From assembly GCA_035606615.1 (NCBI GenBank), contig DATNFA010000119.1:800-64799 (forward strand): DNA of 64,000 nt, in the 5' to 3' direction. The first letter of the stretch is position 1; each line of letters opens with the position of its first letter. The notes beneath the pieces are model-generated. The model ran no database searches. It had not been told where the DNA came from and saw only the letters and a program-made list of their open reading frames with translations. This document shows positions 38,756 to 46,569 of this stretch, piece after piece. The stretch comes from Steroidobacteraceae bacterium. Lineage in GTDB: Bacteria > Pseudomonadota > Gammaproteobacteria > Steroidobacterales > Steroidobacteraceae. The position numbers and the translations under genes were made by a program.

Positions 38756-40021
38756 GTGTCCCTGTTCAGCGATGCCAGCCGCTACATCCCGGGCGGCGTG
38801 AATTCCCCGGTGCGCGCCTTCCGCGCAGTCGGCGGCGAGCCCATTTTCGTCGAGCGCGCCAGCGGCGCGTACGTGTTCGGCGACGACGGCCGCCGCTATG
38901 TCGACTATGTCGGCTCGTGGGGCCCGATGATCCTCGGGCACGCCTACGAGCCCGTGATCCGCGCCGTGCAGGAGCGCGCGGCGCTCGGCCTGTCATTCGG
39001 CGCGCCGACGCAGATCGAAACGCGGCTGGCGCGCCGCATCTGCGAAGTGATGCCGTCGATCGAGCTGGTGCGCATGGTCAGCTCGGGCACCGAAGCGACC
39101 ATGAGCGCGATCCGGCTGGCGCGCGGCTACACCGGCCGCGACAAGATCGTGAAATTCGAAGGCTGCTATCACGGCCATTCCGATTCGCTGCTGGTCAAGG
39201 CCGGCTCGGGCGCCCTCACCTTTGGCGTGCCGACTTCGCCCGGCGTACCCAAAGAGCTCGCCGCGCAGACGCTGACTCTCTCTTTCAACGACAGCGCGCA
39301 GGTGCAGGAACTGTTCGCCTCGGTCGGTGAGCAGATCGCCTGCATCATCGTCGAGCCGGTTGCCGGCAACATGAACTGCGTGCTGCCCGCGCCGGGATTT
39401 CTCGAAACGCTGCGCACAGTGTGCGACCGGCACGGCAGCGTGCTGATCTTCGACGAAGTGATGACCGGCTTTCGCGTCGCGCTCGGCGGTGCGCAAGCGC
39501 TCTACGGCATCAAGCCGGACCTCAGCACGCTGGGCAAGATCGTCGGCGGCGGCATGCCGGTCGGTGCCTTCGGCGGGCGCCGCGAGATCATGGAGCAGAT
39601 CGCACCGCTCGGCCCGGTGTATCAGGCCGGCACGCTCTCGGGTAATCCGCTGGCGATGGCAGCCGGTGAAACGACGCTGGCAGGTGTCAGCGCGCCGGGC
39701 TTCCACGCCAGTCTCGCAGAAAAGACCACACGCCTGATGGACGGCTTGAACGCCGCGGCGCGCGCCGCGGGCGTCCCGTTCACGACCAATCATGTCTGCG
39801 GCATGTTCGGTCTGTTCTTCAGCGACCGGCCGGTGCGCTCGTTCGCGGACGTGATGGCTTGCGACGTGGAGCGCTTCAAGCGCTTTTTCCACGCGATGCT
39901 TGCGGATGGCATCTACCTGGCGCCGTCGGCGTTCGAAGCGGGATTCATCTCCGCTGCACATTCCGCCGCCGACATCGACGCGACGATCGCTGCTGCGCGA
40001 CGAGCGTTCAGCAGCCTGTAG
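38756..40021 (+). CDS. hemL: Glutamate-1-semialdehyde 2,1-aminomutase
   Basis: [43 protein letters not shown]. Confidence 0.97.
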
Positions 40022-40028
40022 CGCGCCG

Positions 40029-40832
40029 ATGCAGCAGCGCGCACTGTCGAGCGTGCACATGTTCTGGCACGGTCCGCCGCTGTCGCGGATCGAGCGGCTG
40101 TGCATGAGCTCGTTCGTTGCACACGGTCACCCCGTGCATCTGCACGTGTATGAGGAACCGAAGCGCGTTCCTCCCGGCGTCACGCTTCGCGATGCGACCG
40201 CAGTGCTGCCGCGCGCGGAGCTGTTCGTGCATCGCTCGTCCGGCTCGCTTGCCGTGTTCGCCGACTGGTTCCGTTATCGCCTGCTTGCCGAGCACGGCGG
40301 GCTGTGGGTCGATACGGACGTAGTGTGCCTGCGGCCGTTCGAGCACGCGGGGCCCGAGATCTTCGGTTGGCAGGACCAGTCGACGATCAACAATGCCGTG
40401 CTCGGTCTGCCGCAGAACCATGCGCTCGCGCGCTGGATGCTCGCGTGCTGCGAGCAGCCGAATCGTTTCCTGCCGTACGACTCGTTGCGGACGCGTCGAC
40501 GCAAACTCGTGCGCCGGCTGCTCGGCCGCGGTCGCGCCGCGAGCAAATGGGGAGAGACCGGACCTGCAGGGCTCACTGCAGCCGCCAGACATCTCGGCTG
40601 CGCCTCGCAAGCCCAGCCGTTCTGGCACTTCTATCCGATCCACTACCAGAACTGGCACACGGTGTTCGACACGACGCTGCGCGACCGCTCCGGCCTCATC
40701 GACGGCAGCTATGGGCTGCACCTGTGGAACGAGATGGCGCGCCGCCAGACGGGCTTCGACCGCGACGGACGCTTCCCGGACGGCTCGCTGTTCGAGCAAC
40801 TGTGGGCGCGCTACGTCACCAGCGATAGCTGA
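40029..40832 (+). CDS. GT-A glycosyltransferase with DxD motif (GT32 / capsular polysaccharide synthesis-like)
   Basis: FWHGPPLS, ADWFRY...GGLWVDTD, WGETGP, LHLWNE. Start trimmed to ATG 40029. Confidence 0.82.
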   Translation: MQQRALSSVHMFWHGPPLSRIERLCMSSFVAHGHPVHLHVYEEPKRVPPGVTLRDATAVLPRAELFVHRSSGSLAVFADWFRYRLLAEHGGLWVDTDVVCLRPFEHAGPEIFGWQDQSTINNAVLGLPQNHALARWMLACCEQPNRFLPYDSLRTRRRKLVRRLLGRGRAASKWGETGPAGLTAAARHLGCASQAQPFWHFYPIHYQNWHTVFDTTLRDRSGLIDGSYGLHLWNEMARRQTGFDRDGRFPDGSLFEQLWARYVTSDS

Positions 40833-42807
40833 GCGAAAGCGTCGCGCCGGTCAGATCGTAGAAGCTGTCCGGCCGCTTCTCGCTGGGCCCATCGCTCGGC
40901 AGCAGCTTGTCGCGCGCGATCTTGTCGCCGTAGCGCAAGTCGAGACTCAGATCGATGCCCGGGAACAGATTGCGCCACTGCACGCCGGCGCCGTAGTAGT
41001 AGCCGTAAGCCGGCGTCGCAAGGTCGAGGCGCGACGCGCCGAGGAAAACGGACACAGCCAACGGATTGTGGAAACGATAGCGATAGTCGAGTGCGCGCAC
41101 GCTGAACAGCAGATCGCCGTCGATGTCGTCGAACTCGGCCCGCACGCCCAGGTCGCTGCGTTCCGTTACGGCGCGGCGCGCGCCGATCGCGAAGTGCGCA
41201 GCGGCGCCCAGACTTTCGGTGTGCGCGGGGCTGCCATCGAGCCGGATCGCCAACTCCGAGAAGTTGATGCCGGCGTCGACGAACAAGTCCGCCCCGCGCG
41301 GCCGCTCGACGTTTTCGGCCCAGCCATCGGCCACACCCCGCGTCTCCCAGTCGTCGCCGAAGCGCACGAAGCCGGCGATGCGGCTGAAGCTCTCGCCGAA
41401 CACATCGCGCCCGCCCAGCACTTCGGCGCCGACAGTGAAGCCGTACATGCCGCGCGAATAGCTCAGCGCCGCGTCGTAGCCGCGCTCGTAGTCATTGCTG
41501 CCATAGCTCTCGTTGGCAACGGTGCGCGCCTGCAGTTGCAGGTATCCGCCGAATGGCGGATTCCAACCGATGCGCAGCATGTGAGTCTGCGCGCCCACAG
41601 CATCCGCGAACACGCGCCGGTCGGCGCCCCAGTGACCCAGCACATGGCCGTCGTTGGTCATGCCGTCGAGGTAGATATCGTGCACGTACCAGCCGTTCTG
41701 CCACTCGCTGGCTTCGTACGTGAGATCGAAGCGCCGCCACAGGCGCGGGAAAGTGATGCCGACCGACAGCGCCGCATTGCCGAGGCGGTAGTTGCCTTCG
41801 TAGGAGCTGTCTTCGCCGGCGTATTCGAGATACGCAGCGAACGGCGTGCGCCCCGGAAAAATAAAGCGGCTGGTCCACGCGGCGATCTGGTTGCCGAACT
41901 CATCCGTGCCTTCGCTGTTGTCCTTCTGGTGCGGCTTGGTCAGCGCATCGATGAAATCGCCGAACGAGCTGCCGCCGCGCTCGCCGCCGCCGAACTGCAT
42001 CAGGCGATTGGCGCTCAGCGACCAGCCTGGCGTCGGCTCGATGGAGAAGCGCAGGCCGGCGAGGCGCGGTTTGCCCGAGGTGCGGTCGTCCGCGTCGATC
42101 GCCGGGTCCGCGTCGTTGTTGAAGACGATCCGATCCGAGTGTTCCATCTCCGCCAGGAACACCTCGTAGCTGAAGCCCAGGCCCGTGAGCGGGCGATAAT
42201 TCGAGAGCGTCACCGACGGCAGCGTGCGCGCTTCGGTGCTGATGATCATCGCGCTGTCGGTGAACGGCGAGAACCAGTGGTCGCGATAGCCGACATCGAG
42301 CTGCGCGAAATCGAAGCCGGCGCTGAGCATCGAGCCGGTCGCGACGGCATCGTCGGCGTCGCCCGCGCCGCCGAGACTGACGACGAGGTAGTCGCTCGGT
42401 TGCCAGTAGCCCTGCGCGCTCGCCACCCATTCGCTGTCGCTGCTCGCGCCGTGCCGGTTCGGCAGCGTCGTGACTGCGCCGTCGTACGCGACAACCTCAA
42501 CGCTGGCGTGCGTCAGCCCGATCTTGCGCATGTACCCGTCGAGATAACGCCGCACGCGAGTACACAGCGCCGCATCGATGCGACACGCGGCGGGCAAAGC
42601 ATCGAGCACCGTTGCAGCGGCAATCGGCCGCGAGGTGATCGGCTTGTCCGCGAGAATCAGCACGCGCTCGATCTGCCGCTCGATCTCGGGCGACAGGTTC
42701 AGCGGCAGGTAGGGGCTCGCGCCGCGCGCCCAGCCCGCCGGAGTAGCGGCGGCGAAGAGCAAACAGGCGACCAGAGCTCGGGCGGTGGCAGGACGGGACA
42801 CGCTCAC
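40816..42807 (-). CDS. Capsule assembly Wzi-family outer-membrane protein with extra C-terminal beta-rich domain
   Basis: Signal peptide, helical N-segment, LDVGYRDHWFSP, DSAMIIS, QFGG motifs, terminal YRW. GTG 42807 overlaps the GT7 stop (TTG 42810 is the alternative). Confidence 0.8.
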   Translation of the reverse strand: MSVSRPATARALVACLLFAAATPAGWARGASPYLPLNLSPEIERQIERVLILADKPITSRPIAAATVLDALPAACRIDAALCTRVRRYLDGYMRKIGLTHASVEVVAYDGAVTTLPNRHGASSDSEWVASAQGYWQPSDYLVVSLGGAGDADDAVATGSMLSAGFDFAQLDVGYRDHWFSPFTDSAMIISTEARTLPSVTLSNYRPLTGLGFSYEVFLAEMEHSDRIVFNNDADPAIDADDRTSGKPRLAGLRFSIEPTPGWSLSANRLMQFGGGERGGSSFGDFIDALTKPHQKDNSEGTDEFGNQIAAWTSRFIFPGRTPFAAYLEYAGEDSSYEGNYRLGNAALSVGITFPRLWRRFDLTYEASEWQNGWYVHDIYLDGMTNDGHVLGHWGADRRVFADAVGAQTHMLRIGWNPPFGGYLQLQARTVANESYGSNDYERGYDAALSYSRGMYGFTVGAEVLGGRDVFGESFSRIAGFVRFGDDWETRGVADGWAENVERPRGADLFVDAGINFSELAIRLDGSPAHTESLGAAAHFAIGARRAVTERSDLGVRAEFDDIDGDLLFSVRALDYRYRFHNPLAVSVFLGASRLDLATPAYGYYYGAGVQWRNLFPGIDLSLDLRYGDKIARDKLLPSDGPSEKRPDSFYDLTGATLSLSYRW

Positions 42808-43697
42808 CAACGCACGCGGATCTTTTCGTAGTCGGCGTGCTCGACGTGCTCGAGCACCTGGTACTTCACGGTGCTGAGCCCGTCCTCGGCGGGATCCGCC
42901 AGGCCGCGCAGCAGCAGGCTGCGGCGCCGGCGGTTCTGCTTCACATAGGAGCGCAACGGCGCGCCCTGAGCTTCAGGATTCGGCAGGTCGCGGAACGTGC
43001 CTTCGGCGTCGAAGTAGCACAAATAGCCGGCGAGCAGCAGCCGGAAAAAGAAGTCGTCGTCTTCCTTGCCCCAGCCCCAGTATTCGTTTGAGAAGCCATT
43101 GGCCGCGAACGCCTGGTCCTTGCGAATCGAGACCGCGCCCGAGAAGTAATGGCAATTGCGCTGCCGGGTATCGACCGCGCCATCGCCGCTGAGCAGTCGC
43201 GTGACGAGGCGCAGCGGTTGCGACGGGCACGCGTAGTTGGCGAGCACCGGCACGGCATCGACATCGTGCAGGCAGTAGTAGTCGGTGGCGTCGGCAGTCA
43301 GCTGCATGCCGATGTTGAGCAGACGCCCGCGATTGAACGGCAGCCCGTCCTCCTGCTCGACGACCACGATCCGCCGGCGCACGCCCTGCTCGCGCAGCGT
43401 TGCAGTGAGCGCCGGCACGAGTTGCGCGAGATGCTGCGCGCGGTCGCGATAGGGAACGACGATCGTGAGACGGCGATCGGCGGTGAATGACAACGGGCGG
43501 AACACGCGGCCGGCCAGCAGCGTGCGAGCCATGCCGGGAATCAGTTTCCAGTTCGCGATGCTGACGGGCGCGTAGCGGCCCTCGACGCTCAGTCCCTGAA
43601 GCGGATCCGTGCGCAAGCGCTTGCTCGGCAACCAGCGGTTCAGCCATCGCGGACCCCGCGACGGCTCGACCGGGTCGAGAAAATACGGGACGGACAA
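42804..43697 (-). CDS. GT7-family (beta-1,4-galactosyltransferase-like) glycosyltransferase
   Basis: VVPYRDR, FNRGRLLNIG, HDVD, YFSGAVS, NGFSNEYWGWGKEDDD. TTG start has AGGAG 7 nt upstream. Confidence 0.85.
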   Translation of the reverse strand: MSVPYFLDPVEPSRGPRWLNRWLPSKRLRTDPLQGLSVEGRYAPVSIANWKLIPGMARTLLAGRVFRPLSFTADRRLTIVVPYRDRAQHLAQLVPALTATLREQGVRRRIVVVEQEDGLPFNRGRLLNIGMQLTADATDYYCLHDVDAVPVLANYACPSQPLRLVTRLLSGDGAVDTRQRNCHYFSGAVSIRKDQAFAANGFSNEYWGWGKEDDDFFFRLLLAGYLCYFDAEGTFRDLPNPEAQGAPLRSYVKQNRRRRSLLLRGLADPAEDGLSTVKYQVLEHVEHADYEKIRVRW

Positions 43698-43874
43698 GAT
43701 TGCACTCCTGCGGGTCGGCCTACAGTTTAACGATTCGTTCCGCCGGCCGTCACTCCCGGCCCTTCAGGTCCGCGGCCGACCAGAAAACCAGGTATGCAAC
43801 GCAGGCTTTCGCCAGTGCGCATAACGCGGCATGCTCGCGGCCGGTTGCACCGGAACGGAGAGCCCCAGGCGTAG

Positions 43875-44684
43875 ATGCGCACCTGCCTGATCGTAACGAC
43901 ATACAACTGGCCCGAGGCCCTGCACCTCACGCTCGCGAGCGTGGCGAGGCAGACGCAGCGGCCGGACGAAATAATCGTCGCCGACGACGGCTCGGGCCCC
44001 GCCACGCGAGCCATGATCGACCAGTGGCGCGCAGCCGGCCTGCCGCTGGAGCACGTCTGGCAGGAGGATCAGGGCTTTCGCCTCGCTCGCTCCCGCAACC
44101 GCGCGATCGCGGCTACGCCCGCCGAGTACATCCTGCTCGTCGACGGTGACATGGTCCTGCATCCGCACTTCGTCGCGGACCACGTGCGCTGCGCGCGACC
44201 GGACTGCTTCATCCAGGGCGCGCGCCCGCAGCTCTCTGCCACAACCACTGCCCAGCTGTTGCAAGGCAGCGGCCCGACCGACCTGGGCCCGCTCACGCCG
44301 GGATTGCACCGACGCGCCTACGCAATGCGCAGCCCGCTGCTGAGCCGCGTTTTCTCCCGGACCAAGGGCACGCTCGGCGGCGTGCAGGGCTGCAACCAAT
44401 CCTTCTGGCGCAGTCACGCGCTTCAGGTGAACGGCTACGACGAGCGTTTCACCGCGTGGGGACCGGAAGATCGCGAATTCGTCGCCCGCCTCCTGCACGT
44501 CGGGCTGCGGCGCCGCTACGTGCGTCACATGGCAATCGCCTTTCATCTGCATCACGCATCGCGTGCGCCGACCGCGCCGAATCCGTTCGATCGGCTGCTG
44601 GACGAGACGCTCGCCAGCGGTACGACGTGGACCGAGCAAGGCCTCGCCGCCCACCTGGACACGACCCGCGCTCGTCACGCGTGA
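43875..44684 (+). CDS. Glycosyltransferase family 2
   Basis: LIVTTYN, IIVADDGS, RSRNRAI, VDGD, NGYDERFTAWGPED. Confidence 0.9.
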   Translation: MRTCLIVTTYNWPEALHLTLASVARQTQRPDEIIVADDGSGPATRAMIDQWRAAGLPLEHVWQEDQGFRLARSRNRAIAATPAEYILLVDGDMVLHPHFVADHVRCARPDCFIQGARPQLSATTTAQLLQGSGPTDLGPLTPGLHRRAYAMRSPLLSRVFSRTKGTLGGVQGCNQSFWRSHALQVNGYDERFTAWGPEDREFVARLLHVGLRRRYVRHMAIAFHLHHASRAPTAPNPFDRLLDETLASGTTWTEQGLAAHLDTTRARHA

Positions 44685-45676
44685 GGTAGCTCGAGCAAAG
44701 CGGCTTCAAGGCGGCCCGTGAAACCGCTCTTGTTGTCGGCAAACCAGGCGCGCGCGCGTGCCCCGAGCTGACTGCACTCCGCATCGCTCATGGCGAGGGT
44801 GCGCTCGATCGCCGCCTCCAACCCTGCCTCATCGAACTGATGCGTCGTCGCGAGCCGCTGCGTGCCAGTCGCGCGATACGGCACGAGCACGCCGCGGTCC
44901 GCAGTGACCAGCTCGTTCATCGGACGGGCATCGACGGTGATCGTCACCGCCCCGACGCCCATCGCTTCCGCGATGTAATGCCCCCAGCCTTCGGTCAGCG
45001 ACAGGCAGAGGTGGAACACGCTTTCGTTCTGCAGCTGGCGCAATTCCTGGTCGGACATGTAGCCGACGCGCGCCTCGATGTTCGGCGCGACCGGCGGCAC
45101 CGGCGCGCCGTCCTTGTGTTGCACGAGGATCAGGCGCGGCCATTCCGGATGCCGCTGCCAGACCTGGACCAGGCGATCCGTGCCCTTCATCGTGCTCTTG
45201 CCGGCCAGATGGAAATAAGTGCGCTGCTTCGCGATCCCGCTTTCGTAGCGATCGTCGCTGTCGAAGCCGATGTAGGTGGTGTTGCAGCCGAGCGCGCGGA
45301 ACAGCTCGCGTGTGTAGGTGGTCTTCGCCCAGACGTTGTCGACCTCCGCCAGGAATCGCCGATCGTGCCGGTCGAACCACTCGGGATTCGGTACGGCGAC
45401 GTTGATAGGCGCCGTCGACAGGTACTGCAGCCAGACGTGCTCGAGCATGAGGTTGACATCGGCACGCGACGTCTGTGCCTTGCCACCCGCCCCGCCCCAC
45501 GCCAGCCGCGCGCGCGTCGCGAACTGCGCCAGCGGCGAGCGACGGCGCCGCGCCTGCACCGCGTCGATGATCGTGACGTCTACCTGATGACCCGAAGCCT
45601 GCAGCGCGCTGGCGAGCAGATCGATATCCCGCGCCAGGCCGACGCCGTTGGACTTGCCGATGATGTTGACGCGCAC
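44675..45676 (-). CDS. GT-B fold glycosyltransferase (GT4 / Glycos_transf_1-like)
   Basis: VPNPEW, HLAGKSTMKGT, TEGWGHYIAEA (E-x7-E), PMNELV. Start uncertain (GTG 45676 or 45688). Confidence 0.8.
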   Translation of the reverse strand: MRVNIIGKSNGVGLARDIDLLASALQASGHQVDVTIIDAVQARRRRSPLAQFATRARLAWGGAGGKAQTSRADVNLMLEHVWLQYLSTAPINVAVPNPEWFDRHDRRFLAEVDNVWAKTTYTRELFRALGCNTTYIGFDSDDRYESGIAKQRTYFHLAGKSTMKGTDRLVQVWQRHPEWPRLILVQHKDGAPVPPVAPNIEARVGYMSDQELRQLQNESVFHLCLSLTEGWGHYIAEAMGVGAVTITVDARPMNELVTADRGVLVPYRATGTQRLATTHQFDEAGLEAAIERTLAMSDAECSQLGARARAWFADNKSGFTGRLEAALLELPHA

Positions 45677-45762
45677 CGTGCGCCGCACGGAGGCAGCATC
45701 CGGAAGTGGCGGCGGTTGAAGAGAGGCGCTGCACATACGAGCGCGGCGCATTGTACAGCCGT

Positions 45763-46569
45763 TCAGCCAGCTGTATCCGCCGGCGCTCCTGGCGCTCGGG
45801 CCGCCGCGGCATCGCTGTGCGTCAACGACCGCCGCCGCCTGCGAGAAACCTTGGCCCAAGCGCGGGCGAATGCGAGCCCGCGGCGGCTCCCGACCATCCT
45901 GACCAGCCCTGGGCTGATGCGCTCCCTGGAGAACACGTGCACGTTCCGCCCGTTGCTCGACAGCTGCATGCCCAGGCGCTCGGCGGCGATCTGCAGCGCG
46001 CGCGCCGAGAAAAAGCTGATGTGCTGACCGCCTTCAGGCGCGTAGTACCACCATTCGCCCGGACGATTGCGCACTGCCGGCAGCTGCTCGGTGCCGATCA
46101 GCACCGTCGGAGCAAGCTGCGCGAGCTCCTGCAGGACGGTCATGGGGTCGACGATGTGCTCGATGACCTCGATGCTGGTCGCGAGATCGAAGCGCTCGCC
46201 CGCCCGCGCGTCGAAGCCCACTGCGAAGATGTTGTCGCAATATTTGTCCTGCCGGTAGAAATCGTAGCCGCGGTCGCGCATGAGCCGGACGAACAGGCCG
46301 GCGCCGCCGCCGAAGTCGATGCAGCGGCGCGCCTGCGGCAGCCCGAGATCGATCAGCGTGCCGACCAGGTCCGCGAACCGCAGGTTGCGGACGACGATGC
46401 CGGTATCGGCCGCTGCAATCGGCAGCTCGTAGGCTTGCTCCAGCCAGGTCGGCTGCTCGACGAACACGAACCCGCAGCGCGTGCAGCGCAGATAACGTGC
46501 AGTGAAGGTCTGCAGAACCTGCTGCTCGCCGAAATGCTCCGTCGCCGATTCGCATATTTTGCAAAGCAT
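45763..46569 (-). CDS. Class I SAM-dependent methyltransferase with N-terminal Cys pairs
   Basis: CKIC...CTRC, IDFGGGAG motif I, IEVIEH, GQHISFF; type seen in polysaccharide loci. Confidence 0.85.
   Translation of the reverse strand: MLCKICESATEHFGEQQVLQTFTARYLRCTRCGFVFVEQPTWLEQAYELPIAAADTGIVVRNLRFADLVGTLIDLGLPQARRCIDFGGGAGLFVRLMRDRGYDFYRQDKYCDNIFAVGFDARAGERFDLATSIEVIEHIVDPMTVLQELAQLAPTVLIGTEQLPAVRNRPGEWWYYAPEGGQHISFFSARALQIAAERLGMQLSSNGRNVHVFSRERISPGLVRMVGSRRGLAFARAWAKVSRRRRRSLTHSDAAAARAPGAPADTAG

Follow-up and report, generated by a model that had tools for sequence, protein, structure and literature searches.

Can a bacterium make use of the enzyme family to which the animal beta-1,4-galactosyltransferases belong, and what would it build with such an enzyme? 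The question is raised by a stretch of 64,000 nucleotides (hereinafter the window, to which all positions refer) from the genome of a Steroidobacteraceae bacterium (Gammaproteobacteria; GenBank assembly GCA_035606615.1, contig DATNFA010000119.1, positions 800 to 64,799 of the forward strand). An open reading frame (ORF) on its minus strand, at 42804..43697, had been described in an initial annotation as a bacterial glycosyltransferase with the full motif set of the animal enzymes of glycosyltransferase family 7 (GT7). Here we argue that this ORF encodes a genuine, full-length GT7 homologue that is predicted to be soluble. We also consider it reasonably probable that the GT7 protein acts as a beta-glycosyltransferase that uses uridine diphosphate galactose (UDP-Gal) and extends a lipid-linked surface glycan, probably the outer core of lipopolysaccharide (LPS).

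Family, fold and active site

Sequence profiles and structure prediction together confirm that the ORF encodes a full-length homologue of the GT7-type (beta4GalT) enzymes, comprising both halves of the family. Glyco_transf_7N (PF13733) of Pfam matches residues 58-151 with 71.1 bits (E=8.7e-20, cut-off 27; 73.1 bits in a scan of the whole genome), and Glyco_transf_7C (PF02709) matches residues 178-225 with 49.2 bits (E=4.2e-13, cut-off 23). Among the PDB sequences, phmmer places Drosophila beta4GalT7 first (6.7e-32), with human beta4GalT1 at 2.2e-25 and the human and bovine enzymes generally at about 1e-25. A profile of 35 bacterial relatives aligns with beta4GalT1 at 2.6e-55 over the whole catalytic domain, including the C-terminal DGLxxLxY and the final strand. 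The AlphaFold2 model, built with 64 homologues, has a mean predicted local distance difference test score (pLDDT) of 83.6 and a predicted template-modelling score of 0.84. Its weak spots are residues 1-28 (low pLDDT), residues 170-190 (64-74) and the long-loop region (73). The top 30 PDB hits of this model in Foldseek are all beta4GalT1 or beta4GalT7 (E from 4e-18 to 5e-15, target-normalised template-modelling score 0.66-0.78). An E-value drop of ten orders of magnitude separates them from the next family, the chondroitin synthases (5e-8 to 1e-6). The latter are much more distant, two-domain polymerases, and the GT7 protein has no counterpart of their partner glucuronic acid-transferase domain; they belong to the same GT-A clade as GT7 (Taujale et al. 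2020).

The features of the gene and of the encoded protein are as follows:

42804..43697, minus strand: GT7-type glycosyltransferase gene (297 amino acids, TTG start, TGA stop; ORF list, Pfam 7N and 7C, PDB matches, AlphaFold2)
43705..43708, minus strand: GGAG ribosome-binding site (Shine-Dalgarno), read from the sequence, 7 nucleotides 5' of the TTG
43602..43649, minus strand: N-terminal motif RWLNRWLPSKRLRTDP, residues 17-32, specific to a "long-form" bacterial clade (64-homologue alignment)
43440..43454, minus strand: PYRDR, residues 82-86, matching PFRNR of beta4GalT1 (R189/R191, UDP binding)
43308..43337, minus strand: FNRGRLLNIG, residues 121-130; R123 corresponds to bovine R228 (HMMER alignments)
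43257..43268, minus strand: HDVD, residues 144-147, the DXD metal/UDP motif; D145 corresponds to D252 and D147 to D254
43128..43148, minus strand: YFSGAVS, residues 184-190; Y184 corresponds to bovine Y289 (donor N-acetyl gate) and G187 to G292
43053..43100, minus strand: NGFSNEYWGWGKEDDD, residues 200-215; W209 corresponds to W314 (mobile loop), E212 to E317 and D213 to D318 (catalytic base)
42972..42995, minus strand: FRDLPNPE, residues 235-242, the second metal-ligand segment in altered form; D237 corresponds to Met344 and N240 to His347 (the "C-His" of GT-A enzymes)

The start position of the TTG-initiated ORF is shared by the homologues. A motif scan finds each of the five motifs named in the initial annotation, and FRDLPNPE as well, in one copy and in the order claimed; the bovine counterparts quoted there, PFRNR, FNRAKLLNVG, SDVD, YFGGVS and NGFPNNYWGWGGEDDD, are seen in the HMMER alignment to PDB entry 1fgx. 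According to the HMMER alignments, R84/R86, R123 and D145/D147 are the equivalents of bovine R189/R191, R228 and D252/D254. Similarly, Y184, G187, W209, G210, E212 and D213 are those of Y289, G292, W314, G315, E317 and D318, the stretch W207-G-W209-G-K-E212-D213-D-D being the WGWGxEDDD loop of the family. All of the mapped catalytic and donor residues are invariant in 64 close homologues, and nearly all of them also across a set of 202 bacterial, viral and animal domain sequences. Specifically, arginine is found at the R84 position in 200 and at the R86 position in all 202 of these sequences, each of the two DXD aspartates is retained in 201, the W209 position is tryptophan in 196, the E212 position is glutamate in 201, and the D213 position is aspartate in all 202. 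The equivalents of bovine C247 and C266, which form a disulfide in beta4GalT1, are also present as C142 and C157. Both cysteines (window 43230-43274) are invariant or nearly so in the clade, though the protein is predicted to be cytoplasmic.

This set of residues bears on the possibility that the ORF encodes either a GT2-like enzyme with a 7C-type tail or an inactive pseudoenzyme that does not bind metal. Many GT2 proteins do match 7C alone, and one of them is the neighbouring gene at 43875-44684, which is of the usual GT2 kind and matches Glycos_transf_2 (PF00535) and 7C without 7N; the replacement of His347 by asparagine might be taken as a sign of lost activity. The two cases can be told apart, since the neighbour matches only 7C and the GT7 protein both halves. 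The identity as a GT2 enzyme with the 7C half alone, a reading raised in the initial annotation, was rejected because the 7N half, at 71 bits against 27, exceeds its cut-off. No GT2 Pfam family, PF00535 included, matches the GT7 protein at E<=0.01, and no family-level NCBIfam model fits it, the sole match being MftF with 25 bits against a cut-off of 280. As to inactivity, the DXD motif, the catalytic base and all UDP contacts show no variation and are evidently under purifying selection across more than 1,400 homologues, and the loss of the C-His is tolerated in other active GT-A families. Either variant appears barely conceivable.

Where the animal enzymes have a transmembrane anchor and a stem, the first ~40 residues of the GT7 protein hold the clade-specific pattern RWLNRW-PS-RLR-DP. 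R17, W18, L19, P24, S25, R27, D31 and P32 are invariant or nearly so in the 64 homologues, and PSxRxxxDP is retained in a wider homologue alignment. Neither a transmembrane helix nor a signal peptide was found in the protein (maximum 19-residue Kyte-Doolittle mean, 0.89), so the absence of an anchor claimed earlier holds; this points to the cytoplasm, where UDP-sugars occur, as the predicted location of the enzyme.

Which sugar would such an enzyme transfer? The initial annotation read the tyrosine before FSG as the equivalent of Tyr289 and as a sign of a UDP-Gal donor. The first part stands, since this residue is Y184 and is invariant in 64 of 64 close homologues. As for the second part, conservation of the tyrosine, of the R228-position arginine and of the D252, G292, G315 and E317 equivalents favours UDP-Gal. 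Y184, R123, D145, G187, G210 and E212 correspond to residues of beta4GalT1 that, from its structures, we take to contact galactose or to gate against the N-acetyl group. UDP-Gal should be available to the cell, since its genome encodes galE (433 bits against a cut-off of 262). The balance of these features tips modestly towards UDP-Gal as the donor. A leucine at the Tyr289 position (mutants Y289L/Y285L) lets the animal enzyme use UDP-N-acetylgalactosamine (UDP-GalNAc; PMC13439607). It is unlikely, but a possibility of some weight, that the protein has the GT7 fold and yet is not a galactosyltransferase, its donor being UDP-glucose, UDP-GalNAc, UDP-N-acetylglucosamine (UDP-GlcNAc) or another UDP-sugar. 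The donor sugar of characterised GT7 enzymes is Gal, GalNAc or GlcNAc; the Tyr289 position is variable in the bacterial family (among the 202 sequences it is Tyr in 109, Phe in 48, and Cys, Asn, Leu, His, Ile, Ala or another residue in 45); G291 of YFGG is a serine in the GT7 protein; and the changed metal site could alter the donor geometry. Against this stands the retention of all six residues, Y184, R123, D145, G187, G210 and E212, which are invariant in the clade.

The metal site does differ from that of beta4GalT1. The segment FRDLPNPE, aligned by eye with Met344/His347 in the initial annotation, is placed identically by HMMER, so that these two metal ligands are replaced by Asp237 and Asn240. 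N240 is invariant and D237 nearly invariant among the 64 homologues. Across the 202 relatives, histidine occupies the His347 position in 145, and an aspartate or glutamate three residues upstream of this position is found in 53 of the 57 His-less but in only 12 of the 145 His-bearing sequences. The D237/N240 state, however, arose about once on the tree, so that an independent-pairs test has no power, and co-evolution of the two residues as a statistical signal was rejected; the pair is a trait of the clade. Other GT-A families are known to have lost the C-His, with water or an aspartate compensating for it (Taujale et al. 2020, PMC7185993). The missing C-terminal Met/His ligands are thus ligand variation and not a family-defining change. 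D237 may replace the lost ligand, and the coordination may be altered such that preference shifts to a harder cation, e.g. Mg2+.

The acceptor side differs as well, and the acceptor cannot be read from homology. Two residues of the GlcNAc pocket of beta4GalT1 are not kept (F280 is replaced by Asp and Y286 by Asn), and the long-loop region (R359, F360 and I363 of beta4GalT1) is gapped or poorly aligned. The enzyme beta4GalT1 (bovine/human B4GALT1; PDB 1fgx, 1o0r, 2ae7, 6fwu) shares with the GT7 protein the GT-A fold (Foldseek ~5e-18), the motifs PFRNR, FNRxxLLN, DVD, YFGG, WGWGxEDDD and DGLNSL and the two cysteines C247/C266. In contrast, the GT7 protein, at 26-29% identity, has a ~40-residue soluble N-terminal motif in place of the type-II anchor and stem, is predicted to be cytoplasmic instead of Golgi-lumenal, has no alpha-lactalbumin context, and differs in the Asp237/Asn240 pair and at the F280 and Y286 positions. 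With beta4GalT7 (Drosophila 3lw6/4lw6, human 4irp/4irq), which gives the highest target-normalised template-modelling scores (0.74-0.78), the GT7 protein shares DVD, the FWGWGxEDDE-type motif and the catalytic aspartate. The tyrosines that bind xylose and the aglycone in beta4GalT7 (Y177/Y179 in Drosophila, Y194/Y196/Y199 in human; PMC4367269) are not shared: the Drosophila pair aligns with R180/C182 of the GT7 protein, Arg and Cys in place of tyrosines, and hence a xyloside-type acceptor site is not conserved.

A variable glycan island and the possible acceptor

Since the acceptor is not legible in the protein, the genes around it have to be considered. The GT7 gene lies in an island flanked by a class-III aminotransferase (hemL-like) gene on one side and by a housekeeping block (Rce1-like, Lon-N, mpl) on the other. 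The other genes of the island are:

40816..42810, minus strand: Wzi-like outer-membrane protein gene (664 amino acids, signal peptide; Pfam Caps_assemb_Wzi, 8.8e-28)
39900..40832, plus strand: GT32-type glycosyltransferase with Gly_transf_sug and Gb3_synth regions, both above the Pfam cut-offs
43875..44684, plus strand: GT2 glycosyltransferase, a divergent neighbour with only 7C besides PF00535 (Pfam)
44675..45859, minus strand: GT4-like (GT-B) glycosyltransferase, with weak Pfam matches under the gathering cut-offs
45763..46569, minus strand: methyltransferase dependent on S-adenosylmethionine (Methyltransf_23; Pfam)

The matches of the GT4-like gene are to Glycos_transf_1 (23.8 bits against 26.4) and Glyco_trans_1_4 (20.9 against 27); its true start is probably downstream of 45763, given the overlap with the methyltransferase ORF.

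The closest association is with the Wzi-like gene, which lies immediately downstream of the GT7 gene, its TTG/GTG start overlapping the TGA stop of the latter (TTGGTGA). The order GT7, then Wzi-like, is found in 12 of 12 loci from the genome search and in nearly all named Steroidobacteraceae loci with long enough contigs. Across these loci the island occupies the same position, with a varying complement of GT2, GT4, GT32, WbsX and methyltransferase genes. In those genomes of the genus that are without GT7, the Wzi-like gene is retained beside other glycosyltransferases. Thus the Wzi-like gene is kept while GT7 is swapped, which makes GT7 an interchangeable module of a hypervariable glycan island and the Wzi-like gene its constant element. 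No second Wzi-family gene was found in the genome under study. The Pfam Wzi match spans only residues 151-394 of the 664-residue protein; the Wzi homologue at a related locus of gammaproteobacterium RGIG665 (L077) has 471 residues. In a Gammaproteobacteria MAG (metagenome-assembled genome; CR_Sed_300A_bin.95, L052:3595-5586), two tandem GT7 genes lie 5' of the Wzi-like gene, and in another genome two 7N matches stand ~850 bp apart on one contig (G018:C473:4171-5562); both arrangements suggest local duplication of the module.

More distant loci add a second association. GT9 heptosyltransferases build the inner core of LPS, and genes of this family lie near GT7 in several lineages. In a Coxiellaceae MAG the gene order is PIG-L, GT9, GT9, GT7, and in RGIG665 it is GT9, GT7, GT2, GT4, GT4 ... 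Wzi; in genome G495 a GT9 gene is located within 2 kb of GT7; and a Chromatiales MAG apparently has four GT9 genes within 10 kb of GT7, if contig 43 of the search is the same as the locus record. According to CAZy, GT9 counts 25,547 bacterial, 33 archaeal and 0 eukaryotic entries, and is thus essentially prokaryotic.

Taken together, these observations allow the following scheme to be envisaged. The GT7 protein, as a soluble cytoplasmic inverting GT-A enzyme, would bind a UDP-hexose, most likely UDP-galactose, via PYRDR, FNRGR and HDVD and a divalent cation on D147, and the donor would be covered by the closing W209 loop. With D213 as general base on the acceptor hydroxyl, a beta linkage would result, probably beta-1,4, which, to our knowledge, is the linkage made by every characterised GT7 enzyme. 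The acceptor would be an oligosaccharide that grows on the lipid anchor of a surface glycan at the inner face of the cytoplasmic membrane and is assembled on lipid A-core as an extension of the outer core or of lipooligosaccharide (LOS). The LPS/LOS outer core appears to fit best because this route needs no dedicated flippase or polymerase. Assembly on lipid A-core is suggested by the content of the island, which consists of glycosyltransferases and a methyltransferase besides the Wzi-like gene, and by the GT9 neighbours. By analogy with the Wzi of E. coli, which binds glycan at the cell surface, the translationally coupled Wzi-like outer-membrane protein might serve as a surface receptor of the finished glycan.

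A rather doubtful variant retains this chemistry but places it on an undecaprenyl diphosphate-linked unit of a capsule, exopolysaccharide or O-antigen, with the export genes located elsewhere and the Wzi-like protein anchoring the polymer, as Wzi does with the K30 capsule of E. coli. It would account for the translational coupling and synteny of a Wzi-family gene with GT7, for two genes of the Wzy_C/O-antigen-ligase type found elsewhere in the genome, and for a polysaccharide pyruvyl transferase close to the GT7 gene in a Thiotrichaceae MAG. However, no flippase (wzx), polymerase (wzy), wza/wzc or initiating transferase gene was seen in any island inspected; the GT9 LPS-core genes adjoin GT7 in four lineages; and the Wzi-like gene stays beside other glycosyltransferases in those genomes of the genus that are devoid of GT7.

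The assignment to the LPS outer core, and the activity proposed along with it, have to be weighed against several facts that do not favour them. A Wzi homologue classically points to a capsule and not to LPS. The single GT9 gene of the genome under study is on the same contig (C119:84573-85250) but ~20 kb past the end of the window and ~40 kb from GT7, and three other long-form relatives (L082, L086, L092) have no GT9 on the GT7 contig, as matched by number. The part of the model that corresponds to the acceptor pocket of beta4GalT1 falls within the low-confidence residues 170-190, and with about one origin of the D237/N240 state, the joint occurrence of the two residues carries no statistical weight for Asp237 as a substitute for the lost ligand. 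Donor, linkage and acceptor are all proposed from homology to animal enzymes at 26-30% identity. UDP-GalNAc and UDP-GlcNAc, too, are known to serve GT7 enzymes as donors; the 26 members of the family whose donor is recorded in the 2020 survey of GT-A enzymes all come from animals; and no bacterial GT7 characterised by activity data was found in the literature and survey sources checked. A search of the literature on the surface glycans of Steroidobacter found nothing relevant.

The role proposed here in the LPS outer core would have analogues among bacteria. LgtB/LgtE (GT25) and WfeD (GT26), which likewise reside in small variable glycosyltransferase islands, probably perform a comparable task, the cytoplasmic addition of beta-Gal to the LOS/LPS core or to a lipid-carried O-unit, but belong to families unrelated to GT7. 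The GWGxED motif, reported to be absent from the characterised bacterial beta4-galactosyltransferases (Brockhausen 2014, PMC4202792), is present in the GT7 protein, unlike LgtB/WfeD.

The GT32 gene of the island, shared by about half of the related islands in Steroidobacteraceae and by RGIG665 (L077), has the two-region layout of animal A4GALT/A4GNT. Animals make globotriaosylceramide with enzymes of these very families, GT7 for Gal-beta-1,4 and the A4GALT-like GT32 for Gal-alpha-1,4. One might speculate, as quite a long shot, that the island caps the LPS core with a Pk/Gb3-like Gal-alpha-1,4-Gal-beta-1,4-R by the joint action of GT7 and GT32, with the Wzi-like protein as a lectin for this cap and the Asp237/Asn240 pair as an adaptation to cytoplasmic Mg2+.

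Distribution and origin

How did a gene with this motif set come to be in Steroidobacteraceae? Protein searches show that it is far from isolated. A word-indexed search retrieved 1,436 relatives, the best 120 of which all contain 7N and 7C and are 60-93% identical; those among the best 120 that bear names are "galactosyltransferase-related protein" of Steroidobacteraceae, Steroidobacter and Povalibacter MAGs. An exhaustive search of 1.84 billion cluster representatives yielded 4,457 clusters (at 50% identity) with E<=1e-3, 75 of them with E<=1e-30. The nearest relative, at 95% identity, is from a Steroidobacteraceae soil MAG, and the hosts are mostly soil and freshwater MAGs.

The distribution of the gene is patchy. 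Counted as matches to PF13733 above the cut-off, it is present in one copy in the genome under study, in 15 of 24 other genomes of the genus, and in 11 of 150 genomes (4 of 40 genera) of the family; it was found in none of 16 genomes that each represent another family of the order, in 1 of 400 genomes of the phylum, and in none of 14 control genomes. When 185,579 species genomes were scanned with a pattern, 207 GT7 relatives came to light, including those of the cultured Peristeroidobacter soli JW-3, Steroidobacter agaridevorans SA29-B and S. flavus CGMCC 1.10759. The scattered carriers are Thiotrichaceae, Chromatiales, Corallincola, Thiovulum, Coxiellaceae, Simkania, Pseudolabrys, Azospirillum, Gemmatimonas, Bryobacteraceae and others. 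Two carriers look like binning or labelling artefacts and not like transfers: an "uncultured Singulisphaera sp." MAG (L067), whose 8.7-kb contig, binned with a planctomycete, encodes a Steroidobacteraceae-type GT7 of 57% identity that falls inside the Steroidobacteraceae clade, and a "Bordetella parapertussis" MAG (L090) with a short-form GT7.

Bacteria and giant viruses also have such short-form GT7-like proteins, which are uncharacterised; the viral examples, from Megaviridae, an Aureococcus anophagefferens virus and Mimivirus LCMiAC01, are labelled "galactosyltransferase". They share the catalytic domain and its motifs with the GT7 protein at 32-47% identity and are soluble or fused, but begin at ~residue 75 without the N-terminal extension, keep histidine at the His347 position, and lie outside the long-form clade. 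Short-form relatives were found on seven Azospirillum chromids; in IMG/VR, at least 534 viral contigs of 10-370 kb, often with 25-35% GC, encode them, in some cases as 500-residue fusions. The chromids, of Azospirillum argentinense and A. brasilense (NZ_CP032322.1, NZ_CP007794.1, NZ_CP012915.1 and others; 1.7-2.0 Mb), carry a gene of ~35% identity over residues 41-283 that is unannotated in the plasmid table; the strains are cultured and genetically tractable. A tblastn search of 50,697 GenBank phage records gave no GT7 relative, and the closest viral structures in BFVD belong to giant viruses, namely Megaviridae, an Aureococcus anophagefferens virus and a Mimivirus relative. A phage origin was rejected on these grounds, the IMG/VR relatives being of the short form.

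For the phylogeny with eukaryotic, viral and bacterial GT7 sequences that the initial annotation had proposed, 101 catalytic domains were analysed in IQ-TREE (LG+C20 PMSF, with Shimodaira-Hasegawa-like approximate likelihood-ratio support); the tree is unrooted and its backbone is unresolved. The query lies inside nested starred clades of 14 (Steroidobacteraceae and G495), 21, 26 and 37 rows, the last being the long-form clade, and all four consist of bacterial or metagenomic members, with no metazoan or viral one. A starred clade of their own is made up of human and bovine beta4GalT1, two arthropod proteins and two with tandem domains, and a FastTree of 202 rows gives the same picture.

These data bear on the idea that the gene was acquired recently from an animal or another eukaryote and makes host-mimicking epitopes of the N-acetyllactosamine (LacNAc) type, an epitope that the initial annotation had also suggested. 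The idea draws on the motif set, which is the same as in beta4GalT1, and on the A4GALT-like two-region GT32 gene in the same island. On the other side stand the placement of the query in bacterial clades apart from the metazoan T1-type clade, the identity of only 26-30% to animal enzymes, a GC content around the GT7 gene that is not anomalous, and a chromosomal locus that is conserved across a bacterial family. Recent transfer from animals was rejected on the strength of the LG+C20 tree and of this locus: the GT7 gene is not a recent animal import, a statement limited to just that, with no lineage called ancestral. The LacNAc-like epitope finds no support either, given the lost GlcNAc-pocket residues, the soil and freshwater hosts and a context that fits a lipid-linked bacterial surface glycan; acquisition and mimicry combined appear highly improbable.

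The occurrence of GT7 in bacteria is, in itself, no novelty. In about 2019, the GT7 entries of CAZy comprised 1 archaeal, 23 bacterial and 309 eukaryotic sequences; wider mining in the 2020 GT-A survey, as far as the columns of its table can be taken at face value, apparently counts ~62 bacterial among 4,372 GT7 sequences. NCBI and JGI already name such proteins "galactosyltransferase-related" or "GT family 7". The GT7 protein is, therefore, a new and uncharacterised member of a known family, and it belongs to a large bacterial branch which, in the sources checked, has no characterised member, so that the well-characterised clade of known function that the initial annotation had considered was not found. 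The protein stands out by its N-terminal motif, by an Asp/Asn pair in the metal segment and by the Wzi/LPS-core context.

With 4,457 clusters, ~207 prokaryotic species and at least 534 viral contigs, the GT7 family outside animals is much larger than the CAZy counts suggest, and this breadth bears on the origin of the animal beta4GalTs. The GT7 protein can be viewed as a natural experiment on the rebuilding of the GT7 metal and acceptor sites, and it connects GT7 with a Wzi-like protein and with LPS-core genes in a family of soil bacteria that has received little study and includes cultured carriers. There is a practical side as well. Animal GT7 enzymes are membrane proteins of the Golgi. Production of mammalian B4GalT1 in E. 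coli is cumbersome, as the enzyme forms inclusion bodies or requires Origami strains and chaperones (PMC13439607). A GT7 enzyme that is natively soluble and cytoplasmic, as predicted here, with the full catalytic apparatus, would be a practical candidate for glycan synthesis.

Tandem GT7 domains, two or three in number, occur in some relatives among the cluster representatives (P0129, P0142, P0149 and P0144). P0142 and P0149 group with the metazoan beta4GalT1-type proteins, and P0144, from an ENA metagenome contig, comprises 1,686 residues with three GT7 domains.

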